From an uncultured Gammaproteobacteria bacterium (GTDB lineage: Bacteria; Patescibacteriota; Microgenomatia; UBA12405; JAHJSD01), in assembly GCA_964428655.1 (NCBI GenBank), contig CAYRYE010000001.1:137328-201327 (forward strand): 64,000 nt of DNA, written 5' to 3'. The number at the start of each line of letters is the position of its first letter. Position 1 is the stretch's first letter. Made by a program: the position numbers and the translations under genes. Below are positions 20,243 through 39,910 of the stretch, in pieces. The notes under the pieces are model-generated. The model was not told the origin of the DNA and ran no database searches. It saw only the letters and a list, made by a program, of their open reading frames with translations.

Positions 20243-20275
20243 CGGTGATATTTTATCATTTTTGCCTCAATTTAA

Positions 20276-23342: not shown

Positions 23343-25031
23343 TTGGTAATGCACAGATTTCTTTTTCCCAGATTTAGAATAAAAGCGATTTTTGAGAACG
23401 GTTCAAGAATTTTTTCACGCCGTCAGTCTAGTATTTTCTCCGCAGCTGCAATTTTGGCAGTGGCTTTTGGTATTTCAGCTCTATTAGGTATTTTTAGAGA
23501 CCGCTTGCTATATGCTAAATTTTATGCTTGTTGCGCCGATCAACTTGATGCTTATAACGCTGCTTTTCGACTTCCGGACATTATTTTTAGACTTTTGGTA
23601 ACAGGGGCTCTTTCGGCTGCTTTTATTCCTGTTTTTAGTGAGCAAATTTCCAAGAGCAAGGAAAAAGCTTACCGGATGGTTTCTTCAGTAATCAATATTC
23701 TCTTTTTAGCTTTTTTGAGCTTGTCAATTATTGTAATTGTTTTTGCCTATCCTCTTTCTCGCCTGATCGCTTCTGGTTTTAGCGGTGACCAGATTTTACT
23801 TATGAGTTTGATAACCAGAATAATGGTTTCTGCTCAGATATTTTTTTTGTTAAGTAGTTTTTTAACTGGCATCCTGCAGACCTATCAGCGCTTTTTGATT
23901 CCCGCCCTGGCGCCCGTTGTTTATAACTTAGGGATTATTTTGGGTATTCAACTGTTAGCACCACGTTGGGGGATTTTTGGTCCTGCCATTGGGGTAGTGA
24001 TTGGTTCAGCTCTGCACTTCTTAATTCAGTTGCCTTTAGTTTTATCATTGGGCTTCAGGTACTCGTTTTCATTCTCTTTTCGACTCCTTGGGGTGAGGAA
24101 GATTTTAAGACTGATGCCGCCAAGGACATTAGCCTTGGGTCTAAGCGAAATTGAGGCTACGCTCTCTCTTTTTCTAGCCAGTAGTTTGCCAACGGGGAGT
24201 CTTTCCTTGTTTTACTTAGGGCAGCGCTTAACTCAATTTTTTTCACGCATTTTTGGAGTGACTATCGGCCAGGCTTGCTTGCCGGTCTTATCAAAAGAAG
24301 CCAGCAAACATCGCCTTGACAGGTTTCGAAAGACGCTTTTGGGTTCCCTACTTCAAGCTCTTTATTTGGCTTTTCCAGCAGCAAGTATTTTCTTGATTTT
24401 AAGAGTGCCGATCGTACGATTGGCTTATGGTTCAAAAGATTTTCCTTGGCAGGCAACAATTGCCACAGGGCGAATTGTTGCCTGTTTCGCTCCATTAGTC
24501 ATTTTTAATGTCATTAACGACATTTTAATAAGGGGGTTTCATGCTCTTCAGGATACAAAGACACCCCTGTTGGCATCTTTTATTTCCCTGATCAGTGTTC
24601 TGGCGGCGGCCTTATTTGCTATTTTTAAATTAGGGTTGGGCATTCATGGTTTGGCAGTGGCAATTACTTTGGCGGGATTAATTCGAGCTCTAGTTCTAGC
24701 AGTTTTGTTAATTAAAAAAGCTGAAATTAGAGATTTAGCAACGGATTTTTTCTCGCCGATTTTAAAGATGTTCTTTTCCAGTATTGTTTTGGTATTGACT
24801 AGTTGGATTTTGCTTAGAACGCTAGATCGTTATGTTTTTGATACAACCCGGATTGCGGGCCTAATAGGTTTGGCCGGAATTAGTTTTGTAGTGGGAGTCT
24901 TTGTTTATTTTGTGTTCACTTTGGCTTTAAGTTTAAAAGAAGCCCAAGTTATCTTAAAGCTGATGAGACGAATTGTGGTTTGGCCGGAATCAGCTCCGCA
25001 ATTAACAGAACTTCCTCCATTACCAGAATAG
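23343..25031 (+). CDS. murJ: Lipid II flippase MurJ (MviN).
   Basis: DAYNAAFRLPDIIFRLLVTGALSAAFIPVFSE and the overall 14-TM architecture; the start codon is uncertain (TTG at 23343 or a downstream Met). Confidence 0.85.
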   Translation: MVMHRFLFPRFRIKAIFENGSRIFSRRQSSIFSAAAILAVAFGISALLGIFRDRLLYAKFYACCADQLDAYNAAFRLPDIIFRLLVTGALSAAFIPVFSEQISKSKEKAYRMVSSVINILFLAFLSLSIIVIVFAYPLSRLIASGFSGDQILLMSLITRIMVSAQIFFLLSSFLTGILQTYQRFLIPALAPVVYNLGIILGIQLLAPRWGIFGPAIGVVIGSALHFLIQLPLVLSLGFRYSFSFSFRLLGVRKILRLMPPRTLALGLSEIEATLSLFLASSLPTGSLSLFYLGQRLTQFFSRIFGVTIGQACLPVLSKEASKHRLDRFRKTLLGSLLQALYLAFPAASIFLILRVPIVRLAYGSKDFPWQATIATGRIVACFAPLVIFNVINDILIRGFHALQDTKTPLLASFISLISVLAAALFAIFKLGLGIHGLAVAITLAGLIRALVLAVLLIKKAEIRDLATDFFSPILKMFFSSIVLVLTSWILLRTLDRYVFDTTRIAGLIGLAGISFVVGVFVYFVFTLALSLKEAQVILKLMRRIVVWPESAPQLTELPPLPE

Positions 25032-25074: not shown

Positions 25075-25650
25075 ATGGCTGAACGCGAAATTTCCTTGCT
25101 GCCTAAAGAAAAGTGGGAAGGGACTGTTATTGGGAGGTTGATGAATTGGGTTTTCTCAGTGGGAAGATACATTATTATCTTCACAGAACTGATTGTTGTT
25201 GGCGCTTTTATATCTAGATTTTGGTTGGACAGAACGAACTCTGATTTATCGGAAGAGGTTAGACAGCAAGAGGCAATTTTAGCTAGTACTAGTGATTTTG
25301 AGAAGGAGTTTACGCTTTTTCAGTCAAGACTGAAGACAATTGCTACTGCCTTAAAAGAACCGAGCGATCCTTTATTATCTTTGGAACTAATTGTTGATAG
25401 CCTTCCCGCTGATGCGGTTCTTGTGAAATACGGTTTTTCAGGAGGGGAGAAGAACGAGGCATCGGTGCTGGCCTTGATTTTTTCCGAGTCTAGTCTGGTA
25501 GAATTTGTAGATAATCTTTTGAGTGAAAGTGAAGTCTCTTCGGTTAGGATTGGGACAATTGAAAGAAGCCAGGGAATGGCTGGAATGAAGATTCAGTTTT
25601 TAATTAGTTTCCGGAGGCCTGGTGCCAATGAAAAAACAGACAATAGCTAA
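25075..25650 (+). CDS. PilN-like type IV pilus assembly protein (bitopic).
   Basis: N-terminal EISLLPKE (INLLP-like motif), a single TM, then a coiled-coil/periplasmic domain. Confidence 0.5.
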   Translation: MAEREISLLPKEKWEGTVIGRLMNWVFSVGRYIIIFTELIVVGAFISRFWLDRTNSDLSEEVRQQEAILASTSDFEKEFTLFQSRLKTIATALKEPSDPLLSLELIVDSLPADAVLVKYGFSGGEKNEASVLALIFSESSLVEFVDNLLSESEVSSVRIGTIERSQGMAGMKIQFLISFRRPGANEKTDNS

Positions 25651-26290: not shown

Positions 26291-26591
26291 TAAAATACCC
26301 AAAAGATTAGTTTGGCTGGCGGTTCTAACTCTTTTAACTGCTTTAATTTGGGTGGCTCTTGATAGCTATCATCAATTGGTTGAAAAAGATCAGCTGAAGA
26401 AATTTAACAAGTTAATCAAGATACTTAATACTGAATTAGAGACTGATATTTTGACCGAGATCGAGGCCAGGAAGGAGTATCAGATTGATGAGATAAAGGA
26501 GTATTTTTTACCTACTCCGACTGCTACTGAACTGGAGAAAATTAGTAGTCCCAGTGCGATATCCACAGAATCAGGAGAGATTAGTGAATAA
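26250..26591 (+). CDS. Small bitopic membrane protein, hypothetical.
   Basis: A single TM (LVWLAVLTLLTALIWVAL) followed by a coiled-coil segment. Confidence 0.35.
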   Translation: MEGYSIGMTMKKSNKIPKRLVWLAVLTLLTALIWVALDSYHQLVEKDQLKKFNKLIKILNTELETDILTEIEARKEYQIDEIKEYFLPTPTATELEKISSPSAISTESGEISE

Positions 26592-27957
26592 AGAGAAAAG
26601 AATACCTACTTTTTTAGGAATAGGCCTTGTTTTGGCTCTGGTAGCCGCCTTGCTTCTTGTAAGGCGGGTGGTTGTTTTTCGGTCTGGGGCCAGTGGAGAA
26701 ACTGTTCCGAAAGAGGTTAAACTAACTAATATCACTAGTGGTTCTTTCGTTGTTTCCTGGCTGACGACAAAAAAGACTAGCGGTTTATTAGGCTTGTTGG
26801 ATAACGGCCAAGAAAGATTATTTCCCGACACTCGAGATAAAACTGGGGAGTTAGCTAAATTTACCACCCACTATATTGTAGTGGATGGGTTGGAGGGTGA
26901 TAGTCAATATGAATTTATTATTATTTCCGGCGGTCAGAAATTTTATGATTCCAGAGAAAACCCTTACCGGGCACATACCGCTAAATCGATTTCGGGAGAA
27001 TTGCCGAAAGCAAATTTGGCATCAGGAGTAGTTAAAACCCTTGATGGCGCATCAGCCAAGGGAGCAATTGCTTATGTTGCTATTGATGGAATTGCGCCTC
27101 TCTCCTCCTTGGTAACTAGTCAAGGGAATTGGGTTATTTCTCTAGCGAAAGCATTTTCTTCGGATTTGAGCCAATTAGCTAATTATCAAGAAGGACATAT
27201 ACTGGAGGAGATTTATGTTCAGGGTGGAGAGATGGGAGTAGCCACGGCCTTGGTTTACACGGAAGATGATGATCCGGTTTCCACAATTACTCTAGGCAGT
27301 CAGTATGATTTTACAGACAAAAATGGTTCCTCAGCCATAGTCGTTCCCACCTCAACGGCAGAATCAAAGTTAGCAGTCGGAGAAGAATGGGAATCATTAA
27401 GTCGTCCTTTTGAGATTATTAATCCCAATGATGGAGAGATGATTAATTTTCCCAGGCCAGAAATTTTTGGTTTTGGTCCCCGGGGAGGTAAAGTTAAAAT
27501 AGTTTTAAAGTCGCCAGTTACTCATGAGGCCGAAGTTGAAATTGATGATCTTGGTAACTGGCGTTGGTCTCCACCTCAAAACTTAATTCCTGGGTCTCAT
27601 ACTTTGAGGATTAAATATACTGATCCTGATACTGGCGAGGAGGAAGATTTTATCCGCACTTTTGTTTTGGCGGCTAGCATTGATGAAGACCAGCCATCAT
27701 TCAGCTCTACTCCTTCGGGGGCAACTGCTACTTTAACGCCGACTTTAACACCTACGGTAGTGCCGACAGCAACTATTGTCTTGTCTCCAACAGCGAGCCC
27801 AACAGCTATTTTAACGGTCACAGCGACTCCACCGCCAAGAACTAGTCAGCCCTCAACTGAATCTGGTGTTCCTGAAAGTGGCTTCTGGGAACCAACCTTT
27901 ATTTTCATCAGTGGAAGTGTTATTTTATTTTTAGTATTGGCTTTAGGCTGGATTTAG
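26554..27957 (+). CDS. Large surface protein: N-terminal TM, FN3-like/beta-rich ectodomain, Thr/Pro-rich stalk and C-terminal TM anchor.
   Basis: N-terminal TM; VKLTNITSGSFVVSWLT (FN3-like strand); [23 protein letters not shown] linker; C-terminal hydrophobic tail. Confidence 0.5.
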   Translation: MRYPQNQERLVNKEKRIPTFLGIGLVLALVAALLLVRRVVVFRSGASGETVPKEVKLTNITSGSFVVSWLTTKKTSGLLGLLDNGQERLFPDTRDKTGELAKFTTHYIVVDGLEGDSQYEFIIISGGQKFYDSRENPYRAHTAKSISGELPKANLASGVVKTLDGASAKGAIAYVAIDGIAPLSSLVTSQGNWVISLAKAFSSDLSQLANYQEGHILEEIYVQGGEMGVATALVYTEDDDPVSTITLGSQYDFTDKNGSSAIVVPTSTAESKLAVGEEWESLSRPFEIINPNDGEMINFPRPEIFGFGPRGGKVKIVLKSPVTHEAEVEIDDLGNWRWSPPQNLIPGSHTLRIKYTDPDTGEEEDFIRTFVLAASIDEDQPSFSSTPSGATATLTPTLTPTVVPTATIVLSPTASPTAILTVTATPPPRTSQPSTESGVPESGFWEPTFIFISGSVILFLVLALGWI

Positions 27958-28007
27958 TATTTGACATTAGTGGCTTTAGTCAATTAAACTGGTTTTAGGA
28001 GATTTTT

Positions 28008-29096
28008 ATGGTTAGAAAAAAACACTTTCTTTTTTTAATTGTTTCTCTTTTTCTCTTGTCAGCTTCTTTAATTGGAGGAATCGTTCTGGTTAAACAAAGA
28101 CAGGAGACAAGAAAAGGAGCTACATGTAACTGCGGCGGCGTGGTGACTCCTTGTGGAACCGAACATTGTAATACCCAAGAATGTAATAAATACAAGTGTA
28201 CTCCTAGCGGTTGGGAAAAAGTCTGTGATAATTGCTGTGGAAATTGTAGTGAACCCCAATGTGGAAATGGTACATGTGATCCTGGTGAAAATTGTGACAA
28301 TTGTCGTCAAGATTGTGAAGTTGATGGCGATTGTAGTGGAGGTGGACCGAGGAATTGCGACCCTGCCTGCGGAATTAATCAGATTTGTTGTAATGGGGTT
28401 TGTTTTGATGGTAGTACATGCGAGGGAAAAGAAACCGGTTCAGCTGATTGCTCTATTGAGGGTCATTCTTTCAAAGTTAAGTGCACTGATATTAGTGGAG
28501 GGGTAACTGGTCATTGGGCAGGTTGCAGCACTGATGAAGAATATGAAACTCTTGCCCAATGTAAGGCTAGCCAAACAGGTGTTGGTTGCGCTACTCATAA
28601 TTTCAGTGTTAATTGTGATGGTCAATGGCATACTGTTGGTAGTTGGTCGCCGAAACCCTGTACTTTTTATCAGGAAGATTTAAATGTTTATTATCCTGGC
28701 GGCACCTTAGCTTGTGGTCGGGCAAAAGTTGATTGTTGGAATGGCGATTGGTCGATTTGTGTTGCACCAACTCCAACTCCAACACCTACGCCTACACCCA
28801 CTCCGACACCGGTTTTTTCTTGTGAGTGTTTAATCCTAGAGATGTATGATTTGGATTGGGAGTTAATTACTGATTACTCTTCCCTTTTGCCGGAAACTGA
28901 AGTTTACCTTGCTGTGACTGGCGAAACTGATCATCCCGGCGGTTTAACTCGGGCGAGATTTAGGATCAATAACGGTGATTGGCAAGAGACAACTGATCGT
29001 CATAACAACAGTTTTTATATAGAGTTTGAGATTCCTGATTATGGAAGTTATTCAGTAGAGGCTCAAGTTTTCAACCCTGATTTGGGTTGGTGGTAA
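28008..29096 (+). CDS. Secreted/anchored cysteine-rich repeat protein with a (TP)n linker and a C-terminal beta-rich domain.
   Basis: Signal anchor, then dense Cys repeats (QCGNGTCDPGENCDNCRQDC, similar to myxobacterial Cys-rich repeats), then a PTPTPTPTPTPTPTP linker. Confidence 0.55.
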   Translation: MVRKKHFLFLIVSLFLLSASLIGGIVLVKQRQETRKGATCNCGGVVTPCGTEHCNTQECNKYKCTPSGWEKVCDNCCGNCSEPQCGNGTCDPGENCDNCRQDCEVDGDCSGGGPRNCDPACGINQICCNGVCFDGSTCEGKETGSADCSIEGHSFKVKCTDISGGVTGHWAGCSTDEEYETLAQCKASQTGVGCATHNFSVNCDGQWHTVGSWSPKPCTFYQEDLNVYYPGGTLACGRAKVDCWNGDWSICVAPTPTPTPTPTPTPTPVFSCECLILEMYDLDWELITDYSSLLPETEVYLAVTGETDHPGGLTRARFRINNGDWQETTDRHNNSFYIEFEIPDYGSYSVEAQVFNPDLGWW

Positions 29097-29109
29097 GTTT
29101 ATTTTTAAA

Positions 29110-29778
29110 ATGGAACTTTTAGAATCTCCCAAGCCTAAAGAGGAGATAGAACCAGCTAAACTAGCAGAAAAGAAAATTGAAAGGGTCAAGAAACCTTCAA
29201 AGTGGGGAATATTGATTGTTTTGTTTTCAACCGTATTATTAGGGGTGATAGCAGTTGCTAGTGCCATTAGGCTCTATCAACTAAGGGAAAAACCAATTGC
29301 GCCTACTGCTCCTGAAAAAACGCCGGCTCAAGAAATTACGCCGACTCCAACCCCAGTTCCTGCTTGTTTTTTAAGTTTTTCCATTTCTAGTCCCACTCCC
29401 ACGGCAACATTGACACCATCACTAACGCCAACTGGAACTTTAACACCGACATTGACTCCAACCGCAACTCCATCATCAACGCCAACACTGACTCCCACGG
29501 CAACATTGACACCATCACTAACGCCAACTGGAACTTTAACACCGACATTGACTCCAACCGTAACTCCCACACCAACCAGCACTCTCACTCCTGTCCCCAC
29601 ATCTACCCCAGCGCCTACTAATACTCCGGTTCCGACTGGTGTTCTGGTGCCAACTAATACTCCAATGCCAACCCCGACTCGAGTCGAACTGCTTGAAGTT
29701 GGAGTTACCTTTCCTTCACATTTATTAATTCTTTTGGGTTCAGTCATTGGTCTTGGGGGTTTACTACTTCTCTTTTAA
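29110..29778 (+). CDS. Bitopic surface protein consisting mostly of a Thr/Pro-rich repeat stalk with TM helices at both ends.
   Basis: N-terminal TM ([20 protein letters not shown]), TPTLTPT repeats encoded by a 96-bp tandem DNA repeat, and a C-terminal TM. Confidence 0.5.
29395..29570. repeat. 96-bp tandem direct repeat (about 1.8 copies) encoding the Thr/Pro-rich stalk.
   Basis: actcccacggcaacattgacaccatcactaacgccaactggaactttaacaccgacattgactccaacc recurs with a 96-bp period (29395 and 29491). Confidence 0.8.
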
Positions 29779-29787: not shown

Positions 29788-31056
29788 ATGAGAGTTGGCA
29801 TTGTTGGCGGGGGAATAACAGGCCTAGTAATTGCTCATGAAATTGTTAAAAGGGGAAATGAGATCTTTCTCTTTGAGTCTGGGGAGAAACTGGGAGGATT
29901 AGCTAGAACTTTTAAAAAACAAAATTGGCACTGGCCCCTGGAAGAATTTTTTCACCACTTCTTTATCTTTGATGATCAAGTTAAAAATTTTCTAAAAGAG
30001 CTAGGTTTAGAAAATGAATTATTTTATAGAGATGTTAAGACTTCTATTTATTTTGAGGGAAGTATTTACCCCTTTGATTCTGTTTCCGACTTTTTAAGCT
30101 TCCCTCATTTGGGCTCGCTAGACAAGTTAAGAATGGGTTTGGCTATTTTTGTCTTGCGTCAATTACCATTTTTACCTATTTTTGAGAAATATACGGCGTT
30201 GGATTTATTTCCCAAACTAATTGGTGCTTCAGGCTGGGACACTGTTTGGGGAAGATTGATGGAAGGTAAGTTTGGCGGTTTTAGCAATAAAGTTTCTTTT
30301 TCTTGGCTTTGGGCTCGGGTTAAGATGAGAAGCAAAAGTTTAGGCTATTTGAACGGTGGTTGTCAAAAGATTTTCGAGGAGTTAAGAAAAGGACTAAAGT
30401 CCAAAGGAAAGATATTTATTTGCAGTCCAGTTAGTAAAATTAGCCCTTTGAAACCAGGGTGGAAGATCAAAACTGGGAATAAAGAGGTTTTAGTGGATAA
30501 GGTTGTTTTGGCGATTCCCCTTTCCCAGGCTCTTGATCTAACTCAGCAACTTATCACCAAGGAAGAATTAGATCAGTGGAGAAAGTTGGAAACAATTGGG
30601 GCTTTGGTTTTGGTTCTGAGAATGAAAAACAAGTTTTTGTCTGGCGGGACCTATTGGCTCAATATCCTTGAGAAAGAATTTCCATTTGTTGCTTTAGTTG
30701 AGCATACTAATTTTGTAAATCCGGAGAATTACGGTAATGAATATCTGGTTTATGTGGGGGGATACTATGACCCAGACAACCCTTTATTTAATTGGTCTAA
30801 GAAAAAAATCTTAAGTCATTTTTCTCCCTATTTAAGACGCCTAAATCCCTCATTTGAAAAATTTTTAATCGATTTTGATGTTTTTTCTTCTCTATGCGCT
30901 CAGCCGATTATTCCAACAAACTATTCTCGGATAGCTCCTTCCTTAGAGCTTGTTCCCGGGAGTGTTTTTTGGGCTACGGCTAATCATATTTATCCTTGGG
31001 ACAGAGGGATGAATTTTTCTATTAAACTGGCCAAAGAAGTTGCCAAACTTGTCTAA
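29788..31056 (+). CDS. FAD/NAD(P)-binding Rossmann-fold oxidoreductase (protoporphyrinogen-oxidase / amine-oxidase / UDP-galactopyranose-mutase-like).
   Basis: N-terminal VGIVGGGITGLVIAHEI...FESGEKLGGLART dinucleotide-binding motif; 422 aa. Confidence 0.65.
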   Translation: MRVGIVGGGITGLVIAHEIVKRGNEIFLFESGEKLGGLARTFKKQNWHWPLEEFFHHFFIFDDQVKNFLKELGLENELFYRDVKTSIYFEGSIYPFDSVSDFLSFPHLGSLDKLRMGLAIFVLRQLPFLPIFEKYTALDLFPKLIGASGWDTVWGRLMEGKFGGFSNKVSFSWLWARVKMRSKSLGYLNGGCQKIFEELRKGLKSKGKIFICSPVSKISPLKPGWKIKTGNKEVLVDKVVLAIPLSQALDLTQQLITKEELDQWRKLETIGALVLVLRMKNKFLSGGTYWLNILEKEFPFVALVEHTNFVNPENYGNEYLVYVGGYYDPDNPLFNWSKKKILSHFSPYLRRLNPSFEKFLIDFDVFSSLCAQPIIPTNYSRIAPSLELVPGSVFWATANHIYPWDRGMNFSIKLAKEVAKLV

Positions 31057-31081
31057 TTCTGGTTCCTCCTTTACAATGTGA

Positions 31082-32014
31082 TTGATGGCAAAAACCAAAA
31101 ACTTTCTGAAAGGAATTCTTAAATCAATGCGTCCAGTTCAATGGACTAAAAATTTGGCTGTTTTTGCAACAGTTATCTTTAACGGTAAACTGTTTGAATC
31201 CCCTTTTTTTAGCAAAAGCCTTTTGGCTTTTATTGCTTTCTGCGCTCTTTCTTCATCTTCTTACTTGATTAATGATGTTGTTGATATTCCTTACGATCGC
31301 TTTCACCCTCAGAAAAGAAACAGACCAATTGCTAAAGGCGACATTACTCCTGCTCAGGCGATTTATGTTTCTCTTTTCCTGATGTTTTTGAGTATTGTTT
31401 TATCTTCTTTCTTAAACCTCGGTTTCATTTTACTGCTTCTGATTTTTTTGACTGTTCACTTAACTTATTCATTTTATTTAAAGAAATTTGCTGTTCTAGA
31501 CATTTTAGCGATTTCCTTTTCTTTCATTCTCCGCACTTTGGGTGGAGAAATAGCTACCGGTTATCATTTGCCGGTTTGGTTGATGTTTGCTGTAGTTTTT
31601 TTATCTCTTTTTATTGCTAGTGGTAAAAGAAGAAGTGAATTAGTTGTTGAGGGCTCAAGGACGAGACCGGCTTTGAAAAAGTATGGTAAAGAACTTCTTG
31701 ATTTTTATGGTGCAATTTTTGCTGTTTCTACCTTACTTTCTTATTCTTTATTTGCCTACTTGGTCAAACCACTTGATTTTAGTCATCCCAGGATTAGAGA
31801 TTTCTTGATTAAGAATATGCCTTATCTAATTGGGCGTAAATGGCTGATGATAACAATTTTCCCAGTGATATTTGGGATTATGCGCTACTCCCAGTTGGTT
31901 CTTGAAAAAAAGAGAGGGCAAAGGCCTTCCCAACTTTTGGCCTCTGATATCCCCCTTTTGGCAACGATTCTTGTTTGGGGTTTAATGCTCATCGCAATCG
32001 TTTATGTTTTCTAG
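31082..32014 (+). CDS. UbiA-family prenyltransferase (decaprenyl-phosphate phosphoribosyltransferase-like / polyprenyl-P sugar-phosphate transferase).
   Basis: NDVVDIPYDRFHPQKRNRPIAKGDI (NDxxDxxxD motif) and 8-9 TM segments. Confidence 0.75.
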   Translation: MMAKTKNFLKGILKSMRPVQWTKNLAVFATVIFNGKLFESPFFSKSLLAFIAFCALSSSSYLINDVVDIPYDRFHPQKRNRPIAKGDITPAQAIYVSLFLMFLSIVLSSFLNLGFILLLLIFLTVHLTYSFYLKKFAVLDILAISFSFILRTLGGEIATGYHLPVWLMFAVVFLSLFIASGKRRSELVVEGSRTRPALKKYGKELLDFYGAIFAVSTLLSYSLFAYLVKPLDFSHPRIRDFLIKNMPYLIGRKWLMITIFPVIFGIMRYSQLVLEKKRGQRPSQLLASDIPLLATILVWGLMLIAIVYVF

Positions 32015-33599
32015 TCTTCCTCTTGTTTTCTTTTCAATCATCACTAGGCTTTTTGGACTTCCGTGGGGTGAGAGTTTCTTTTTTCATCCCGACGAGAATA
32101 ACATGGCTTGGGCAGTGGGCAGAGTTTCTTTGTCTAATCTAAACCCTCAGTTTTTTGCCTATGGTCATTTCCCTTTATATTTAGTCTATTTCAGCTATCA
32201 AGTTTTAAGGTTTGTTTTTTCTGGAATGGTCTTTGGGGAGATTACTTTTCCTTTGGCAGTCTATCTTCTTCGTTTTTGGTCAGCGTTCTTTTCCCTTATT
32301 ACTCTTATTATTGGTTGGTTTCTGGCGAAAGAAGTCTTTGGTAAAAAAATATGGGCTAAAATTTATGTTTTGCTTCTCATTTTCACTCCTGGATTAATTC
32401 AAATGGCGCATTTTGGCACTACCGAGTCGGTTTTAGCTTTTACCGCTGTTGGCTTGGCCTATTTTTCCCTCAAATTTGCTAAAACTAAGGAATTACGATA
32501 TTTATTTTTACTCTCTTTGATTTCTGCTGTTGGTTTGGCTTCAAAAGTTAGCGCTGCCCTTTTTCTTCTTTCTCCTGCCTTATCAATTTTAATTTTAGAG
32601 AATGAAGAGAAAAAGATTAAGTTTTTGAAAAAAACTAAGTTCTTGTTATTTTATGGTCTGACTACAATCATGCTCACTTTTACTTTTTCACCTTATACTT
32701 TTTTAGATTGGCAGGAATCTTTAAGAATTCTGAGTTATGAATCTAATGTAGCTCGTGGCATCACATCCATTTTTTACACTCGTCAGTTTATCAATACTAG
32801 ACCAGTTATTTTCCAACTAACCAAAGTTTTCCCTTGGATATTGGGATTGCCAATGTTTGTTTTAATTTTATTCGGCCTAGCGTTCTTTTTTACTCGATTA
32901 ATTAAAAGAAAAATTTCTCTAAATACTAAATACTTAGTACTAAATGCTATTTTTCTTCCTTGGCTTCTTTTTAATGCCTTTCTTTTTACTAAATGGACTC
33001 GGTTTATGACTCCAATCCTGCCATTTTTAGTTTTGTTAGTTGTTTGGCTTTTGCGGGAATTAAAAAAAATTTTAAAAAAGCAGCACTTTTCTATTCTTTT
33101 CTATTCTTTTCTATTCTTTTCTATTCTCCCCGGCATCTTATTTATGAAACTTTATTTTTCTCTTGACATTCGAATCTGGGCCAATAGTTGGATAAACAAG
33201 AATTTACCCAAAGGTTCAGTAATTTTGTATGAGGGTGGGAATATTGTTGATTTGCCTGGAATTGATGGGCAAAAATTCAAAACTGTTAATATTGATTTTT
33301 GCCATCTGGACGAAGACGCTCAAAAAACTGAGGAATTAGAGAAGAAAATTAAAGAGGCGGATTACTTTTTATCTCCCTCGCGCCGGATTTTTACTAATTA
33401 CCCTCGTTTGCCAAATGAGTTTCCAAAGACAGCTCGGTTTTACCAACAGCTTTTTTCCGGAGAATTAGGTTTTGTTCCCATTAAAGAATTTCATCCATTT
33501 GGTTTTTTGGGAGAATTACTTTTAGGATCTGACTTAATTTCCGAAGAAACCTGGACTGTTTTTGATCATCCAACCATTCGTTTGTTTAAAAAAATCTAA
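32004..33599 (+). CDS. GT-C-type membrane glycosyltransferase-like protein (ArnT/PMT_2/DUF2298-like) with an HPDE motif.
   Basis: FFFHPDENNMAWAV after TM1, polytopic, and a C-terminal TVFDHPTIRLFKK shared with the 34462 paralog. Confidence 0.55.
   Translation: MFSSLPLVFFSIITRLFGLPWGESFFFHPDENNMAWAVGRVSLSNLNPQFFAYGHFPLYLVYFSYQVLRFVFSGMVFGEITFPLAVYLLRFWSAFFSLITLIIGWFLAKEVFGKKIWAKIYVLLLIFTPGLIQMAHFGTTESVLAFTAVGLAYFSLKFAKTKELRYLFLLSLISAVGLASKVSAALFLLSPALSILILENEEKKIKFLKKTKFLLFYGLTTIMLTFTFSPYTFLDWQESLRILSYESNVARGITSIFYTRQFINTRPVIFQLTKVFPWILGLPMFVLILFGLAFFFTRLIKRKISLNTKYLVLNAIFLPWLLFNAFLFTKWTRFMTPILPFLVLLVVWLLRELKKILKKQHFSILFYSFLFFSILPGILFMKLYFSLDIRIWANSWINKNLPKGSVILYEGGNIVDLPGIDGQKFKTVNIDFCHLDEDAQKTEELEKKIKEADYFLSPSRRIFTNYPRLPNEFPKTARFYQQLFSGELGFVPIKEFHPFGFLGELLLGSDLISEETWTVFDHPTIRLFKKI
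33087..33126. repeat. Decanucleotide tandem repeat (ttttctattc, 4 copies) inside the GT-C gene.
   Basis: Read directly; encodes FSILFYSFLFFSIL. Confidence 0.85.
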
Positions 33600-33837: not shown

Positions 33838-34473
33838 CTAAAACAAACTTTCTTGTTTTATTTCCTTTTTTTGCTTATCAATAGGTGCTTTTTCTTTAAT
33901 TTCTTTTGTTTGTTTTATAATCTCTGGGATCTTAAGGAAGTCTTCTTTTAATTGTTGCATGACATTGCCGTTTCTTAAACCAGCGGCAGGATGATACATA
34001 GGAATTATTAACAGTTCCACTCCTTGCCAAAGAATTTTTCTTGGTTGGCTGTGAACTTTCGAGATGTAAACACTGGGAATAAAGTAGTTCATGGCAAACC
34101 GGCCCAGAGTGATAACCACTTTTGGTTTAATGATTAAAAGTTGTTGTTTTAAATGAGGAGTACAAGCGTCAATTTCAGCTGGAAGCGGGTCGCGATTATT
34201 GGGCGGCCGGTGTTTTAAGATGTTGCCAATAAAGACATTTTCACGCTTGATATTGATTGTTGCTAATAGTTGGTCAAGTAAATTTCCGGCCGCGCCGCAG
34301 AAGGGAATTCCTTTTTGATCTTCCCAGTAGCCTGGGGCTTCGCCAATAAAGACAATTTCTGCGTTTGGATTAGGCCCGCCCGGAACAGAATTGGTAGCCG
34401 TTTTATAAAGAGGGCATTTTTGGCAATTTTTAACTTGTTCAGCAGTTTTTGCTAATTCCTCTTGGTTAGACAT
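33838..34473 (-). CDS. udg: Uracil-DNA glycosylase, family 4 (Fe-S containing).
   Basis: CQKCPLYKT...GEAPGYWEDQKGIPFCGAAGNLLDQLL...HPAAGLRN motifs. Confidence 0.8.
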   Translation of the reverse strand: MSNQEELAKTAEQVKNCQKCPLYKTATNSVPGGPNPNAEIVFIGEAPGYWEDQKGIPFCGAAGNLLDQLLATINIKRENVFIGNILKHRPPNNRDPLPAEIDACTPHLKQQLLIIKPKVVITLGRFAMNYFIPSVYISKVHSQPRKILWQGVELLIIPMYHPAAGLRNGNVMQQLKEDFLKIPEIIKQTKEIKEKAPIDKQKKEIKQESLF

Positions 34474-36165
34474 ATAATTATGTTAATGAAAAGATTTGCT
34501 TTAAGCAAACAAAAACTGATTCTATTTTTAATTTTGGTCTTTGGATTTGGACTGAGAGTTTATGGTCTCAATTGGGACCAGGGATTTCATTTGCATCCGG
34601 ATGAACGTTTTCTGACCATGGTTGGGACAAAAATTCAGCAGCCTAAAAGCATAAAAGAATATTTTGATACTTCAAAATCGCCTCTTAACCCTTACAACAA
34701 TGGCTACGATTTTTTTGTTTATGGCCCTTTTCCTGTTTTTTTAACGAAATTTATTGCTGGTAATTTTGGCTTGGACAATTACGCCGCCTTTAATCTAGTT
34801 GGTAGGTTCCTTTCAGCCCTCTTTGATGTTGGCATTATTTTTTTGCTTTTTAAAATTTCAAAAAGTATTTGGCCCAGTTTTCTTTATTCATTAATGGTTT
34901 TGCCAATTCAGCTTTCTCATTTTTTTGCGGTTGATATTTTTTTAAACTTTTTTTTAGTTTTGACTTTCTACTCGGCTTTAAATTGCCCAGCGATTCTAAC
35001 AGGTATATTTTTAGGTTTGGCGCTTTCTTGTAAAATTTCTGCCATTTTATTTTTACCAGTAATTGGTTTAATATTTCTTTCCAAGTTTAGATTTGATCTT
35101 AGAAAACTATTTTTTACTACTTGCTACTTACTACTAGCTGCTTTCTTATCTTTTCGGTTTTTTAGCCCCTATTCTTTTTCTGGTCTTTTTAAAATTAACC
35201 CTCAATTTTTAAAGAATTTGAAAACATTGAATTCCTTTAATAATCCAGATGCCTGGTATCCACCAGCAGTTCAATGGATTAAAACTAAACCAATTATTTT
35301 TCCGGTGAAGAATTTATTCTTTTGGGGATTGGGCGTTCCAATGGGAGCGATAATGATTCTATCTACATGTTTATATATCTATAATTCTGTAAAAAGGAAA
35401 ACCATTCAACCACCCGCCTGCAACGCTATGTGTAGCATTGCGGGTGGGTTTAACCATTTAACCATCTCTCTTCTTTGGATTTTCTTTTTATTTTTCTTTC
35501 AGGCTGTTCAGTTTGTTAAAACCATGCGCTACTTCCTACCGCTTTATCCATTTTTGACTTTAATGGCAGGTGATTTTGTTTTAAAACAGTCAAGAAAATT
35601 TAAAATTTTTGTTTTGCCATTTTTGTTTGTTTATCCCCTTGCTTTTATTTCTATTTACTCTCAGCCTCATTCTCGGGTAGCCGCCTCACATTGGATTTTT
35701 GAAAATATTCCTCCAGGGTCAGTTGTTTCTTGTGAGCATTGGGATGACTGTTTGCCTTTAGGAATTGGCGGCAGAAACGCCTCAATTTATCAAACAAAAA
35801 TGCTTTCTCTTTTTGATCAGGATACCGAGGAGAAGTGGCAAGAAATTTCTAGACAGCTAGAAAAAATTGATTATTTAATTCTTTCTTCTAATCGACTTTG
35901 GGATTCAATTCCAAAAGTACCGGAAAGATACCCAGTGACAACAGAATATTACCAAATGCTTTTAAAGGAAGAGTTGGGCTTTAAGAAGATTAAGGAATTT
36001 ACTTCCTATCCTAAATTGGAAATTGGAAATTGGAAATTGGAAATTCGCGACGGAGTTGCAGAAGAAGCATTTACTGTTTATGATCACCCAAAAGTGATGA
36101 TATTTATTAACGAACATGAACCTAATCGAGAAGAGTTTCTTGAACGATTTTATCCCACTCGATAG
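34462..36165 (+). CDS. GT-C-type membrane glycosyltransferase-like protein, paralog of the 32004 gene (HLHPDERF motif).
   Basis: FHLHPDERFLTMVG after TM1; C-terminal TVYDHPKVMIFINE; polytopic, 567 aa. Confidence 0.55.
   Translation: MVRHIIMLMKRFALSKQKLILFLILVFGFGLRVYGLNWDQGFHLHPDERFLTMVGTKIQQPKSIKEYFDTSKSPLNPYNNGYDFFVYGPFPVFLTKFIAGNFGLDNYAAFNLVGRFLSALFDVGIIFLLFKISKSIWPSFLYSLMVLPIQLSHFFAVDIFLNFFLVLTFYSALNCPAILTGIFLGLALSCKISAILFLPVIGLIFLSKFRFDLRKLFFTTCYLLLAAFLSFRFFSPYSFSGLFKINPQFLKNLKTLNSFNNPDAWYPPAVQWIKTKPIIFPVKNLFFWGLGVPMGAIMILSTCLYIYNSVKRKTIQPPACNAMCSIAGGFNHLTISLLWIFFLFFFQAVQFVKTMRYFLPLYPFLTLMAGDFVLKQSRKFKIFVLPFLFVYPLAFISIYSQPHSRVAASHWIFENIPPGSVVSCEHWDDCLPLGIGGRNASIYQTKMLSLFDQDTEEKWQEISRQLEKIDYLILSSNRLWDSIPKVPERYPVTTEYYQMLLKEELGFKKIKEFTSYPKLEIGNWKLEIRDGVAEEAFTVYDHPKVMIFINEHEPNREEFLERFYPTR
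35400..35463. repeat. 36-38-bp GC-rich imperfect palindrome (aaccacccgcctgcaacgcta-tgtg-tagcattgcgggtgggtt) inserted in frame, flanked by aaccattcaacc / aaccatttaacc direct repeats.
   Basis: Read directly. The same AT-rich module (aaccattcagcc-atttaaccatttaaccattcc) occurs uninterrupted at 39133-39166 in the 37772 gene. Confidence 0.7.
36013..36047. repeat. Heptanucleotide tandem repeat (aaattgg, 4 copies plus 1 imperfect) inside the GT-C gene.
   Basis: Read directly; encodes KLEIGNWKLEIR. Confidence 0.85.
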
Positions 36166-37267
36166 AAAATAATTTTTGGTCAAATAACTTTTTTGTCAGG
36201 GGAAGCTTTTTTGCAAAGTGGCCTTTTTCTTTTATTACTTCTATGATCGCTTTTGTTAGCCTTCGATGATTACCAACAGGAATAATTTTTCCCATGCTGG
36301 TTAATCCCACTGGCGTTCTTACTCCCGGTAAATTGCTGGCAACAACTGGGCAACCGCAAAGCATTGCTTCTGGTTGAACGATGCCAAATGTTTCTAGGTT
36401 ATTAGTGCTGGGCAAAACAAGGCAGTCAAAGTTGTAATAATAATTAACTAGTTTTTCATGTGAAATGGGTCCGGTAAGAACAACCCATTTTTGGTATTTT
36501 TTGAACAGTTTTTTTAACCTTTGATAAGTTTTATCGCCAATTACTTGCTTATAAGGGCCAATAAAAACTATTTTGAAGTCCCTAAAAGTGTTTTTAAGTT
36601 TTGGGATTGTTTTTAAAATTAAGTCTATGCCTTTTTCCCAGCCGATCCGACCGACGAATCCAATAATTTTAGTCTCTCTTTTTTTATCAATTGTTTTGGC
36701 TATTTTTTTAATTTCTTTGTTGCTTTTTTTACCAAGGATGATTGGGGGCAAGATAAATTCTGTTTTAGTTAGGAATTTAGAAAGAAACATTGAATGCTGA
36801 GCGTAATCTTTGGTATAAGCAACGATTTTGTCGGCCCAATGATAAACTAAATAGTGAGGAAAATAAGTTAGAAATTTAATAAGTTTCTTAGTAATGCCGG
36901 GAGCATTACCAAACTCGCAATGGTGGACCAAAACAATTGGTTTTCTAAAAATTTTTCCCCAGAGAGCCAACCAAACAGCTTCTAGCTGAGGAAGATGGCA
37001 AATAACTAAATCTGTTTTTAAGACTTCTTTTAATGAGGCAAGAGGAAAGGTGGGCATTAGAATTCCCTTGTTGATCTTTAGCGGAGACCAAATGCGGCGA
37101 ATGTAAATTTTGCCAATCTTTTCTTGCGTGAGGAGATTGTTTTTAAATTTGGAAGTTAAAATAGTTACCTGATCTTTTTTAGCCAAATCCTTAGCTAGTA
37201 CATCAGCATAAATGCTGACACCGCTGATATTAGGAAGATAGTAAGTGAGAGAAATTAAGATTTTCAT
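36122..37267 (-). CDS. Cytosolic glycosyltransferase family 4 (GT-B fold).
   Basis: GRIGWEKGIDLIL and EAMLCGCPVVASNLPGV (EX7E region) motifs. Confidence 0.8.
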   Translation of the reverse strand: MKILISLTYYLPNISGVSIYADVLAKDLAKKDQVTILTSKFKNNLLTQEKIGKIYIRRIWSPLKINKGILMPTFPLASLKEVLKTDLVICHLPQLEAVWLALWGKIFRKPIVLVHHCEFGNAPGITKKLIKFLTYFPHYLVYHWADKIVAYTKDYAQHSMFLSKFLTKTEFILPPIILGKKSNKEIKKIAKTIDKKRETKIIGFVGRIGWEKGIDLILKTIPKLKNTFRDFKIVFIGPYKQVIGDKTYQRLKKLFKKYQKWVVLTGPISHEKLVNYYYNFDCLVLPSTNNLETFGIVQPEAMLCGCPVVASNLPGVRTPVGLTSMGKIIPVGNHRRLTKAIIEVIKEKGHFAKKLPLTKKLFDQKLFSIEWDKIVQETLLD

Positions 37268-37771
37268 TTTTCACTAAAAATAGTTTTGTACCTTTTATTT
37301 TTTCTTTGAGGTAGTTAATTATAATTGGATCGTCATCAAAGAAATAATCAAGTTTTAACTTTTGGACCATTTCCTTTTTAAAAATATGTGGTTGTTGATT
37401 TTGTTGATTAATAATTATTTTTTGGAATAGTTGATTTATTTCGTTTTTTTCTAGCCAAACTTGAGTCCTTTTTTTCAAAAAACTATATCGGCCGGAGATA
37501 ATATAAATTTCGACATTTTTCTTTTTAGCCAGTTTTTTAATTGCCTCAAGATTTTTTCCCAACGGTGGGCGAAGTAATGGATGGTGACTAAGTTTTCTTA
37601 ACCAGATTTCTACCTTTAATTCGGGGAAACGGTATTTTTTTTGACGATTGCCGTGAGAACAGTAAAGCCATTCTAACAAACGCTTGGGCATAAAAAATGG
37701 TTTGCCAATAATAACACCGTCCAAGTCAATGCCAATTTTGATTTTTCGGCCAGAGGCGGACTTTTTAGTCA

Positions 37772-37772
<1 letters not shown>
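37230..37772 (-). CDS. HAD-superfamily hydrolase-like protein (putative phosphatase).
   Basis: N-terminal IGIDLDGVI (DxD motif I); 180 aa. Confidence 0.4.

Positions 37773-39910
<2,138 letters not shown>

Follow-up and report, generated by a model that had tools for sequence, protein, structure and literature searches.

The mycobacterial DPA pathway is made up of the UbiA enzyme Rv3806c, the PAP2 protein Rv3807c, DprE1/DprE2, Rv3789 and the Emb/Aft GT-C glycosyltransferases. In Mycobacterium tuberculosis, Rv3807c lies beside Rv3806c in the order Rv3806c-Rv3807c-AftB, and the GtrA-like Rv3789 adjoins DprE1. The Gtr/Arn layout consists of a GT2 synthase (GtrB or ArnC), a flippase (GtrA or ArnE/F) and a GT-C (GtrC or ArnT), and we know of no described Gtr or Arn system with a flavoenzyme. 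Beyond Actinobacteria, PRPP-derived polyprenyl-P-pentofuranose donors that feed GT-Cs are documented as widespread (Kelly et al. 2024, PMC11127046). The "three-component" systems comprise a PPPRS, a phosphatase, a flippase and a GT-C, with auxiliary epimerases, and ORF15, ORF14 and ORF12, with or without ORF13, of Citrobacter youngae O1/O2 are extracytoplasmic pentofuranose glycosylation systems of this kind (PMC11127046). As cited in the same paper, D-arabinofuranosylation of the group IV pilin of Pseudomonas aeruginosa uses a PPPRS, DprE1/E2 homologs and the GT-C TfpW.

Here, we describe a locus from a Microgenomates-type Patescibacterium (CPR), found in a 64-kb stretch of DNA (the window, to which all coordinates refer). 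Its genes for an FAD-dependent oxidoreductase (FAD), a UbiA-family protein and a GT-C are real, co-oriented and form the head of a conserved cell-surface glycosylation cassette. From homology and context, we lean towards placing this cassette, as a CPR representative, among the three-component pentofuranose glycosylation systems; its additional flavoenzyme would be of a kind not previously described.

Results

The oxidoreductase gene (29788..31056, plus strand, 422 aa) is followed after 25 bp by the UbiA gene (31082..32014, plus strand, 310 aa counted from TTG; translation probably starts from the ATG at 31085, and the protein has 309 or 295 aa in public gene calls). The UbiA stop codon, TAG at 32012-32014, lies 11 bp within the ORF of GT-C 1 (32004..33599, plus strand, 531 aa), which begins with ATG at 32004. 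All three ORFs are present as the initial annotation had claimed, and so are the gap of 25 bp between the first two, the overlap of stop and start codons, and the NDxxDxxxD motif of the UbiA protein. No convincing terminators were found in the cassette, and together with the stop/start overlaps this fits an operon.

The order FAD-UbiA-GT-C-UDG(-)-GT-C-GT4(-)-HAD(-)-DUF2298-UvrD, where (-) marks the minus strand, is also present in the relatives L087 and L088. Since their flavoproteins are only ~50% identical to this one, the order is not a chance juxtaposition. FAD and UbiA stay adjacent in relatives with as little as about 48% FAD identity; in L087 and L088 the gap is only ~30-45 bp, and the two members of 17 FAD/UbiA homolog pairs come from contigs listed with the same length. 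The arrangement FAD-UbiA-GT-C...HAD-DUF2298 is shared by the window, L031, L087 and L088, and the order UbiA-GT-C-GT-C-phosphatase-DUF2298 is syntenic across Microgenomates. All six loci reached via more distant UbiA homologs (52-58% identity) contain UbiA-GT-C-GT-C-(SDR, methyltransferase or GT4)-PAP2-DUF2298, and none of these six includes the FAD gene. UbiA was linked to a pair of GT-Cs in 10/10 UbiA-containing cassettes inspected with enough flank. Gene order in CPR is highly syntenic, and guilt by association within the phylum is therefore weakened.

The UbiA protein looks, from its sequence, like a polyprenyl-phosphate 5-phosphoribosyltransferase of the PPPRS/DPPRS type. It matches Pfam PF01040 (2.1e-26), and its NDxxDxxxD motif reads N64-D65-V-V-D68-I-P-Y-D72. 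NCBIfam DPPRS models gave 1.4e-60, 7.6e-56 and 7.3e-45, compared with 2.9e-16 or weaker for other named UbiA subfamily models; those for quinone, heme O and DGGGP enzymes trailed the DPPRS models by 44 or more orders of magnitude. Its score of 204.9 bits lies slightly below the NF008978 cutoff of 207. The closest solved structure in the PDB is Rv3806c (8j8j, 2.1e-34), with a DGGGP synthase at 3.1e-7. Nine of the 11 PRPP-contact residues, whose roles were taken from PMC10994848, are identical, and the other two are conservative changes (Q135 to H and Y157 to F); R17, K23, Y61, N64, D68, K78, R81, Y129 and K134 are invariant among 120 CPR homologs. The equivalents of K28 and Y70, phosphoribose-specific residues that are not conserved across other UbiA enzymes (PMC10994848), are invariant in these homologs.

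The oxidoreductase carries a GxGxxG Rossmann motif at its N terminus, and its Pfam matches are Amino_oxidase (6.5e-22) and NAD_binding_8 (6.9e-12). Judged by its score of 357.2 bits against NF005560 (PRK07233; cutoff 252), it belongs to this widespread uncharacterised family. The AF2 model (pLDDT 96.5) predicts a fold of the PPO/phytoene-desaturase/MAO type and not the VAO/PCMH fold of DprE1: Foldseek returned PPO 2ivd (E 1.6e-27, TM 0.82) and PDS 5mog (TM 0.83), and UGM did not appear before rank 50. PPO/PDS/MAO flavoproteins have the overall fold in common with the protein (TM 0.78-0.83, Foldseek E to 1.6e-27) but just 15-18% sequence identity, and the genomic context here is envelope glycosylation and not tetrapyrrole or carotenoid synthesis. 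The protein scored far below the cutoffs of models for PPO (57.8 bits against 517 and 44.2 against 97.85), PDS (26.9 against 569), HpnE (48.5 against 283) and UGM (18 against 303.75, with the GLF domain absent). Many of its Arg, Lys, His and Tyr residues are invariant.

Among 80 FAD-family loci, UbiA adjoins FAD in only three, a flippase-like LPG_synthase_TM protein in 33, and a GT-C or DUF2298 without UbiA in about 20. Loci of the Levybacteria type have FAD directly before GT-Cs (-3 to +8 bp), also without UbiA, and in Chloroflexota the FAD and LPG_synthase_TM genes overlap by 4 bp. Fusions of the types LPG_synthase_TM::FAD (P0463) and FAD::GtrA (P0486) occur, and the neighbours of such fusions encode ArnC/PgfS/GtrB-like GT2 synthases, PMT_2 GT-Cs and an AftD-type GT-C. 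LPG_synthase_TM is also found within a UbiA cassette (L084). Other contexts of the family include PBP2, LytR-CpsA-Psr, PGM/PMM and UDP-glucose dehydrogenase. Lipid-linked-sugar machinery is a recurrent neighbour or fusion partner of the FAD family, and the fusion of family members to flippase-like membrane domains favours a substrate that is lipid-linked and not soluble. Because FAD is absent from six UbiA cassettes and UbiA from most FAD loci, the flavoprotein may serve a different donor even here. From these neighbourhoods and fusions, an accessory role in which it acts on polyprenyl-P-linked sugars seems the most probable.

GT-C 1 resembles PMT/ArnT-like glycosyltransferases (PMT_2, 37.2 bits, cutoff 26.1; 4.3e-9). 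It has an HPDE motif after TM1, which is found in 18 of 21 homologs (NPDE in two more), and the only PDB match of a profile of the 21 homologs was ArnT (5ezm, E 0.006). GT-C 2 (34462..36165, plus strand), of a paralogous family, has no Pfam match of its own; it was assigned from its HPDE motif (14/14 homologs), its conserved position after GT-C 1 and the matches to PMT_2 or PMT of orthologous genes in L081, L082 and L084. The DUF2298/chlor_Arch_YYY polytopic membrane protein (37772..39910, plus strand; PF10060 3.7e-104, TIGR03662 3.8e-158) is the constant final member in all cassette classes and may have a GT-C-like role.

A small HAD-superfamily phosphatase (37230..37772, minus strand; DLDG motif, weak Pfam and NCBIfam HAD matches) would be this cassette's only phosphatase candidate for removing the 5-phosphate from polyprenyl-P-ribose-5-P. 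It is present alongside FAD, in the slot that PAP2 fills in FAD-less cassettes, to which PAP2 is confined. Its homologs are CPR-only, none of them fused to UbiA and one fused to a GT4 (P0269), and profile models detected no relation to the characterised PRP phosphatase domain. It may instead act with the GT4 (GT-B) glycosyltransferase, an accessory cassette member (36122..37267, minus strand; Glycos_transf_1 1.6e-29) whose gene shares 38 nt with the HAD gene; the HAD-GT4 pair also occurs in L087, L088 and L063. A MurJ/MOP-superfamily flippase (23343..25031, plus strand; MurJ 4.9e-76, MatE 1.2e-9) opens the syntenic block, in a position conserved in relatives. It may flip the lipid-linked donor or have no role beyond flipping lipid II, and no flippase dedicated to the cassette is evident in the window. 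Three co-oriented genes directly upstream of the cassette (26554..29778, plus strand; their translations include TPTPTPTPTPTPTPTP) encode proteins that are membrane-anchored or secreted and have linkers rich in Pro and Thr, with a weak Big_13 match. Their slot holds variable genes in relatives, and we speculate that they could be acceptor substrates of the PMT-like GT-Cs. PilN/PilO-like genes, like those of the Pro/Thr-rich surface proteins, lie directly upstream of the cassette.

Discussion

In the pathway that we propose, UbiA would move 5-phosphoribose from PRPP onto polyprenyl phosphate at the cytoplasmic face, as its homology and conserved active-site residues suggest. A phosphatase would strip the 5-phosphate to give polyprenyl-P-ribofuranose, and position points to the small HAD protein here and to PAP2, in the same slot, in FAD-less relatives. 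The PRK07233 flavoprotein, by its neighbourhoods and gene fusions a putative separable accessory module of lipid-linked-monosaccharide/GT-C systems, would act on the polyprenyl-P-linked intermediate before flipping, either at the sugar head group or at the lipid beside the phosphate. The donor would then be flipped, with MurJ/MOP as a candidate here; one relative has a flippase-like LPG_synthase_TM protein. Finally, the two PMT/ArnT-like GT-Cs and DUF2298 would pass the pentofuranose to acceptors outside the cytoplasm, for which the Pro/Thr-rich surface proteins of the adjoining upstream genes are possible candidates.

The C. youngae-type system likewise has a UbiA-family, PRPP-dependent polyprenyl-P-ribose synthase beside its GT-C(s) and a phosphatase in the cluster, and the counterpart of its ORF13-type auxiliary epimerase is a GalE-like SDR in the relatives L082 and L014. 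However, its phosphatase is a fused PRP domain and not a separate small HAD (or PAP2, as in relatives), the GT-Cs here are PMT/ArnT-like and number two plus DUF2298, the window cluster lacks a dedicated MATE flippase gene, and the host is a CPR bacterium without LPS O antigen. The extra PPO-fold flavoenzyme is in no described three-component system. The mycobacterial DPA pathway contains the nearest solved structure to UbiA (Rv3806c, with conserved PRPP contacts) and also an FAD enzyme, and the adjacency of UbiA, PAP2 and GT-C in FAD-less relatives mirrors Rv3806c-Rv3807c-AftB; in the window, though, the FAD fold is not that of DprE1, DprE2 is absent, the GT-Cs are not Emb/Aft by Pfam and the donor product is not assigned as arabinose. 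In the P. aeruginosa pilin system, as cited in PMC11127046, a PRPP-derived lipid-linked pentofuranose O-glycosylates a surface protein; the window cassette lies directly downstream of PilN/PilO-like and Pro/Thr-rich protein genes, but no pilin gene was identified beside it and homologs of the DprE1/E2 proteins cited for that system are absent. The Gtr/Arn layout is matched by the FAD-family loci L093 (GT-C-like protein, PgfS/ArnC-like GT2, LPG_synthase_TM::FAD) and L089 (small GT2, two SDRs, FAD::GtrA, large membrane protein), and ArnT is the only PDB match of GT-C 1, but the synthase in the window is a putative UbiA/PPPRS and not a GT2.

The interpretation given in the initial annotation is partly supported. 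It had likened UbiA to Rv3806c/DPPR synthase, and by NCBIfam, PDB and contact residues the protein does group with decaprenyl/polyprenyl-phosphate phosphoribosyltransferases, and not with quinone or heme O prenyltransferases or DGGGP synthases. It had also set the flavoprotein apart from DprE1 in fold, which Foldseek on the AF2 model bears out. Of the proposed polyprenyl-P-pentose route feeding the GT-Cs, the UbiA identity and the GT-C linkage stand, but the coupling of FAD to UbiA fares poorly across the FAD family (3/80 loci). A PPO/phytoene-type enzyme with an unrelated neighbourhood had been named as counter-evidence: the fold is PPO/PDS-like and the family does have another conserved neighbourhood, yet that neighbourhood is also lipid-linked-sugar machinery. 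The 64-kb window contains no DprE2-like or other SDR reductase, which speaks against the FAD-dependent epimerase system that had been drawn from mycobacteria. Nor is the pathway any longer unusual outside Actinobacteria, because the cassette matches the widespread systems described in 2024 by Kelly et al. (PMC11127046).

It is very improbable that UbiA is simply a prenyltransferase of the common aromatic or lipid kinds (quinone, heme O or ether-lipid) in a cluster unrelated to sugar donors. It does fall in Pfam UbiA, and some homologs are labelled 4-hydroxybenzoate polyprenyltransferase in the source annotation, but it fits the quinone, heme O and DGGGP models far worse than the DPPRS models, the phosphoribose-specific residues are invariant in its homologs, and its partners are a conserved GT-C and PAP2. 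The flavoprotein leaves more room for other readings. It could be unrelated to UbiA, serving another envelope pathway, making another donor for the same GT-Cs or acting as a UGM-like nucleotide-sugar mutase, with adjacency reflecting cassette synteny only. Most cassettes have FAD and UbiA apart, with lineages apparently retaining one or the other; FAD co-varies with HAD, PAP2 occurring only in FAD-less cassettes; the family has the PBP2, LytR-CpsA-Psr, PGM/PMM and UDP-glucose dehydrogenase contexts; and UGM is detectable as a structural relative (Foldseek rank 50). We nevertheless find this doubtful, as FAD-UbiA adjacency persists to about 48% FAD identity, the UGM model and GLF domain fail to match, and the flippase-like fusions argue for a lipid-linked substrate.

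The flavoprotein is also unlikely to be a non-orthologous DprE1 analogue that oxidises the 2'-OH of polyprenyl-P-ribose and so yields the arabinofuranose epimer, a DPA-like donor for the GT-Cs. In the PPO/MAO-type flavoprotein superfamily, oxidation is mostly of C-N or C-C bonds and not of sugar hydroxyls, and alcohol oxidation would be atypical. The fold counts against this reading too, as do the window's lack of any SDR reductase, DprE2-like or otherwise, the 77/80 FAD loci without adjacent UbiA and the pairing of FAD elsewhere with GT2 (hexose-type) synthases. In its favour, the FAD gene directly neighbours UbiA in the same orientation both in the window and on no fewer than 17 related contigs, the FAD::GtrA fusion recalls the GtrA-like Rv3789 that adjoins DprE1 in M. 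tuberculosis, one family member adjoins an AftD-type GT-C, and the invariant Arg, Lys, His and Tyr residues would suit a phospho-sugar head group. Known systems also have auxiliary epimerase genes beside PPPRS genes (PMC11127046). Quite unlikely as well is a role in modifying the polyprenyl carrier, by which saturation, desaturation or isomerisation of an isoprene near the phosphate would give a dedicated carrier pool for GT-C donors. A lipid-directed enzyme would be expected to accompany UbiA, GT2, GtrA, LPG_synthase_TM and GT-C whatever the sugar route, as FAD does, and the nearest folds and weak family matches are isoprenoid/tetrapyrrole enzymes (PDS, CrtI, HpnE, PPO); however, a limited literature search turned up no bacterial precedent, and so many invariant charged or polar residues are unusual for a purely hydrocarbon-directed desaturase.

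An accessory enzyme of polyprenyl-P-linked sugars is the reading of the flavoprotein that we prefer. The UbiA/GT-C part of the cassette represents a known kind of system, and it is the flavoenzyme that provides the novel lead.

Results

A UbiA-family protein encoded with GT-C proteins

Three co-oriented genes are at issue here: an FAD oxidoreductase gene (29788-31056, + strand; 422 aa; Pfam Amino_oxidase 6.5e-22, NAD_binding_8 6.9e-12), a UbiA gene (31082-32014, +; 310 aa from a TTG start; Pfam UbiA PF01040, 2.1e-26) and a first GT-C gene, GT-C 1 (32004-33599, +; 531 aa), whose product matches Pfam PMT_2 above the gathering score (4.3e-9; 37.2 bits against a cutoff of 26.1). The FAD and UbiA genes are separated by 25 bp, and the UbiA stop codon (TAG, 32012-32014) falls within the GT-C 1 reading frame, which opens with an ATG at 32004, giving an overlap of 11 bp. 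The next possible UbiA start is an ATG at 31085, and public gene calls are 309 or 295 aa. The UbiA protein carries N64-D65-x-x-D68-x-x-x-D72. The initial annotation had described these reading frames, their positions and spacing and the NDxxDxxxD motif, all of which were confirmed from the ORF list, Pfam and an alignment. GC content is low (about 35-45%), and the source names of homologs indicate a Patescibacterium of the Microgenomates type. A promoter and terminator scan gave counts near those of shuffled controls, with no convincing internal terminator.

The UbiA protein has the membrane fold of its superfamily (PF01040, 93.1 bits against a cutoff of 34.2). The NCBIfam decaprenyl-phosphate phosphoribosyltransferase models match it at 1.4e-60, 7.6e-56 and 7.3e-45 and the HAD-UbiA fusion-protein model at 1.6e-47, with the quinone, heme O, chlorophyll and DGGGP models of the same collection all at 2.9e-16 or worse. 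Against the curated equivalog cutoffs it scores 204.9 bits versus 207 (NF008978) and 189.7 versus 234 (NF008977). Close homologs are named decaprenyl-phosphate phosphoribosyltransferase by NCBI, and in the PDB Mycobacterium tuberculosis Rv3806c (8j8j, 2.1e-34) ranks ahead of DGGGP synthase (3.1e-7) and UbiA (3.3e-3).

The residues that bind PRPP in Rv3806c were compared in an alignment of the window UbiA protein, Rv3806c residues 11-238 and 120 homologs from Patescibacteria (CPR). In Rv3806c the diphosphate is contacted by R22, K87, R90, K143 and Y138, Mg2+ and the ribose by N73 and D77, ribose O3 by Q135 and the 5-phosphate by K28, Y70 and Y157, and the sites binding phosphoribose are not conserved across other UbiA enzymes (PMC10994848). 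The Mg2+/diphosphate motif N-D-x-x-D-x-x-x-D, which comprises N73, D77 and D81 in Rv3806c (PMC10994848) and N247, D248, D251 and D255 in ORF15 (PMC11127046), is present as N64, D65, D68 and D72, invariant across the 120 CPR homologs. The pyrophosphate K/R cluster and Y138 are retained as R17, K78, R81, K134 and Y129, again invariant in all 120. Among the phosphoribose-specific contacts, K23 and Y61 (for K28 and Y70) are identical and invariant, with H126 in place of Q135 and F148 in place of Y157. The invariant positions of the alignment are, in order, R, K, Y, N, three D, K, R, Y and K. Position 157 (Rv3806c numbering) is Phe in every aligned homolog, as it also is in some mycobacteria (PMC10994848). 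The Q135 equivalent is Gln in 67 and His in 53 of the CPR homologs, the window clade having His126 (about 31457-31459 of the window) and most other homologs Gln; the His/Gln difference does not strictly track the FAD gene, as one related locus, L084, combines His with an FAD-less cassette. By homology, we conclude that the window UbiA protein is a predicted PRPP-dependent polyprenyl-phosphate phosphoribosyltransferase.

For the GT-C proteins, an [H/N]PDE motif lies directly after TM1 in 20 of 21 homologs of GT-C 1 and in all 14 homologs of the second GT-C protein (GT-C 2, 34462-36165, +). A PDB search with a profile of the 21 GT-C 1 homologs returned ArnT (5ezm, E 0.006) as its sole match. GT-C 1 is a polytopic membrane protein whose first extracytoplasmic loop bears an acidic motif, and its assignment as a GT-C draws on the Pfam family model, this motif and the weak ArnT profile match. 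Between the two GT-C genes sits a family-4-type uracil-DNA glycosylase gene (UDG; 33838-34473, -; 3.2e-33), which shares 12 nt with the beginning of GT-C 2, an insertion kept in two close relatives. Just upstream of the cassette, a minus-strand envelope block (17279-23022, -) encodes a Glycos_transf_4 (WecA/MraY-like) protein, a 503-aa GT2 and two further PMT_2 GT-Cs (20276-21742 and 21724-23022, both -), so that five GT-C-like proteins are encoded in this neighbourhood.

The cassette in related genomes

Six loci (L081-L086) obtained through UbiA homologs at 52-58% identity share a common order: MurJ, a PilN/PilO-like gene, a small gene, a Big_13/fn3 surface protein and UbiA, followed by a PMT/PMT_2 GT-C, a PMT_2 GT-C, variable accessory genes, a PAP2 phosphatase, DUF2298, UvrD and FemAB. 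Among these accessory genes, L082 carries a GalE-like SDR and L084 carries DUF362 with LPG_synthase_TM; methyltransferases and a GT4 also occur. The FAD gene is absent from all six. Two closer relatives, L087 and L088, match the window exactly (FAD, UbiA, GT-C, UDG on the minus strand, GT-C, GT4 and HAD on the minus strand, DUF2298, UvrD). The linkage of UbiA to GT-C is kept in every UbiA-containing cassette with enough flank (10/10); PAP2 is confined to the FAD-less cassettes (6/6) and the small HAD to the FAD-bearing ones. The arrangement in these FAD-less relatives, where UbiA stands next to PAP2 and GT-C, resembles the M. tuberculosis gene order Rv3806c-Rv3807c-AftB.

The window HAD phosphatase (37230-37772, -) shows no match to the HAD portion of the fusion model NF006088, and among its homologs no HAD-UbiA fusion was found, the only fusion being one of HAD with GT4 (P0269). 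Because the HAD and GT4 genes (36122-37772, -) overlap by 38 nt and this one fusion homolog exists, the data suggest that HAD may partner GT4, following a sugar-phosphate synthase/phosphatase logic, rather than UbiA. The only flippase candidate in the window is a MurJ/MOP protein (23343-25031, +), whose gene lies upstream of FAD at a distance of 4.8 kb. In the FAD-less cassette of L084, DUF362 and a flippase-like LPG_synthase_TM gene (13276-15411 of that locus) lie between the GT-Cs and PAP2, a tie between a UbiA cassette and the gene that accompanies the FAD family in Chloroflexota (see below).

Directly upstream of the FAD gene and co-oriented with it are three genes for membrane-anchored or secreted proteins (26554-27957, 28008-29096 and 29110-29778, all +), a slot occupied by variable genes in relatives. 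These proteins have long Pro/Thr-rich stretches (e.g. TPTPTPTPTPTPTPTP), and one is also Cys-rich. Pro/Thr-rich linkers of this sort are typically O-glycosylated by PMT-like GT-Cs.

Several other features of the region were observed. DUF2298/chlor_Arch_YYY (37772-39910, +; TIGR03662, 3.8e-158) is the constant terminal gene in all cassette variants, and some Chloroflexota loci (L035, L045 and L074) have it close to FAD as well; a literature search on it turned up nothing useful. The genes after MurJ (25075-26591, +) are PilN/PilO-like through their orthologs only (PilN 5.9e-6 and PilO 1.3e-5 in L039 and L031), with no Pfam match for the window copies, and no pilin gene was recognised beside the cassette. 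Farther away (9175-10907, +), two tandem paralogs code for P-loop ATPases of the MinD/ParA type into which 4Fe-4S ferredoxin domains are inserted (CbiA plus Fer4). A number of the loci compared (L001, L010, L015, L021, L028, L065 and others) show Microgenomates gene content and synteny although labelled "uncultured Gammaproteobacteria bacterium" (binchicken MAGs), and these labels are probably wrong.

The FAD protein and its family

The FAD protein belongs to the uncharacterised NCBIfam family NF005560/PRK07233 (357.2 bits against a cutoff of 252, residues 1-421 of 422), and in a profile comparison with PDB sequences the uncharacterised PF1083 (3nrn) comes nearest. Its invariant residues include H56, H57, D62, R115, K161, R177, R181, Y289, W290, Y322, Y326, Q372 and R406. 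A confident AF2 model (68 sequences; pLDDT 96.5) was compared with the PDB by Foldseek, where protoporphyrinogen oxidases (PPO) ranked top (E 1.6e-27, TM 0.82), followed by phytoene desaturase (PDS; TM 0.83) and monoamine oxidases (MAO). The best 50 structural neighbours are all PPO, PDS, MAO, LAAO or UDP-galactopyranose mutase (UGM), at 13-18% identity. Pfam finds Amino_oxidase and NAD_binding_8 Rossmann domains instead of a VAO/PCMH (DprE1-type) domain. The initial annotation had held that the fold differs from that of DprE1, which agrees with both lines of evidence, and had proposed a structural comparison with Glf and DprE1: UGM appears only at rank 50, and no VAO/DprE1-type fold occurs among those best 50. 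Scores against curated cutoffs led us to reject identity as PPO/HemY (57.8 versus 517 and 44.2 versus 97.85 bits), HpnE (48.5 versus 283), phytoene desaturase/CrtI (PDS, 26.9 versus 569) and UGM (18 versus 303.75); CrtD also fell below its cutoff.

A profile search of 1.84 billion representatives returned 1560 family members at E<=1e-30, and a scan of species-representative genomes gave 80 FAD-family loci of about 20 kb each, from Patescibacteria and Chloroflexota. UbiA adjoins FAD in three of the 80 (L031, L054 and L065). In loci of the Levybacteria type, FAD lies immediately next to a GT-C pair (-3 to +8 bp), followed by SDR, HAD and DUF2298, and UbiA was not found within roughly 20 kb per locus. 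In 33 of the 80, labelled Chloroflexota, an LPG_synthase_TM "flippase-like" gene (4.8e-58; TIGR00374) precedes FAD, often with a 4-bp overlap. UDP-glucose dehydrogenase is nearby in 13/80, mostly directly downstream, and the further contexts (PBP2, LytR-CpsA-Psr, PGM/PMM, FemAB-like) are likewise envelope-related.

Unusually long family members are fusions, joining FAD to an N-terminal LPG_synthase_TM (P0463), to a C-terminal GtrA_DPMS_TM (P0486) or methyltransferase (P0354), or to an unannotated N-terminal 400-aa polytopic domain (P0441). The LPG_synthase_TM::FAD fusion follows a PMT_2-like membrane protein and a PgfS/ArnC-like GT2 (4.1e-84 and 2.9e-44) in L093; a polysaccharide cluster, L089, contains a small ArnC/AglJ-like GT2, two SDRs, FAD::GtrA and a large membrane protein; and L091 has an AftD-type GT-C, a PMT_2 GT-C, membrane::FAD and a GT2. 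Judged by these fusion contexts, the FAD family recurs in the arrangement of synthase, flippase and GT-C that lipid-linked monosaccharide systems have, with a GT2 or, in the window clade, UbiA as the synthase. In L091 and L092, the context of P0441, the fusion is flanked on one side by the PMT_2 GT-C and the AftD-type GT-C (PF11847, 1147 aa) and on the other by the GT2, a ferredoxin and a radical SAM protein, within a large glycan cluster. ORFs resembling GtrA or the P0441 N-terminal domain were not found in 88 loci and the window, at single-sequence sensitivity. Literature searches on PRK07233 and on bacterial PDS-like polyprenol reductases returned nothing relevant.

Discussion

The best-supported reading is that the cassette would be a CPR version of the three-component systems, which experiments have shown to be widespread and to add pentofuranoses outside the cytoplasm (Kelly et al. 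2024, PMC11127046). Such systems comprise a PRPP-using UbiA-family polyprenyl phosphoribose synthase, a HAD phosphoribose phosphatase domain or separate phosphatase, a flippase (MATE in the prototype) and a GT-C; auxiliary epimerases alter the sugar, a GalE-like SDR giving Xylf and DprE1/E2 homologs giving Araf, and candidates have been reported in bacteria (Gram-negative as well as Gram-positive) and a phage (PMC11127046). The window resembles them in that GT-C 1 is encoded, with overlap, beside the predicted synthase; its candidate phosphatase is a separate HAD, with PAP2 in that slot in L081-L086. GalE-like SDRs are confined to some relatives, and no DprE2-like or other SDR was found in 55 ORFs scanned, of 60 ORFs of at least 100 aa in the window. 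For all the cassette proteins, we infer the enzymatic activities: UbiA would make polyprenyl-P-ribose, HAD may act as 5-phosphatase, and the FAD protein would be a separable accessory acting on a polyprenyl-phosphate-linked substrate before flipping, with MurJ/MOP as a candidate flippase and the Pro/Thr-rich proteins as possible acceptors.

The initial annotation had read the three genes as a decaprenyl-phospho-arabinose-like donor module, of which the UbiA/GT-C part, as a lipid-linked pentose donor system, is supported. Its expectation that such a pathway would be unusual outside Actinobacteria no longer holds, since the UbiA protein, GT-C and candidate phosphatase fit the three-component kind (Kelly et al. 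2024, PMC11127046). The remaining part, in which the FAD protein next to UbiA would be a DprE1 analogue giving an arabinose donor, is less likely, because the fold differs, the window lacks a reductase partner (among the 55 ORFs scanned), FAD and UbiA are mostly found apart, and the family elsewhere pairs with GT2-type synthases. Two further explanations of the FAD protein are live rivals, namely that it catalyses a lipid-directed reaction, or that its role is independent of UbiA.

Returning to the sugar-tailoring role, we tentatively propose, as an idea that may well prove wrong, that PRK07233 flavoproteins are a previously unrecognised class that tailors the sugar of polyprenyl-phosphate-linked monosaccharides at the cytoplasmic face (by a non-orthologous DprE1-type oxidation/epimerisation, or by ring/keto conversion), diversifying GT-C donors in Patescibacteria and Chloroflexota; here, UbiA-made polyprenyl-P-ribose would yield a different pentofuranose on surface proteins.

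Patescibacteria are episymbionts with minimal genomes, and to our knowledge almost nothing is known of their surface chemistry. Literature searches for a three-component-type system in these bacteria (CPR with UbiA, DPPRS with Patescibacteria) found none; the UbiA/GT-C module adds a member to the kind described in 2024, from a phylum for which it had not been discussed. The Microgenomates-wide syntenic cassette predicts PRPP-derived pentofuranoses on extracytoplasmic acceptors, a concrete prediction for the envelope. What is novel is the FAD association, which would repay biochemical study: the family is large, has no assigned function and is recurrently fused or coupled to flippase-like, synthase and GT-C proteins of lipid-linked sugars. 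If the FAD protein does tailor such sugars, it would represent a new enzyme type for the diversification of GT-C donors, and the conserved pairing of LPG_synthase_TM with FAD in Chloroflexota would be explained.
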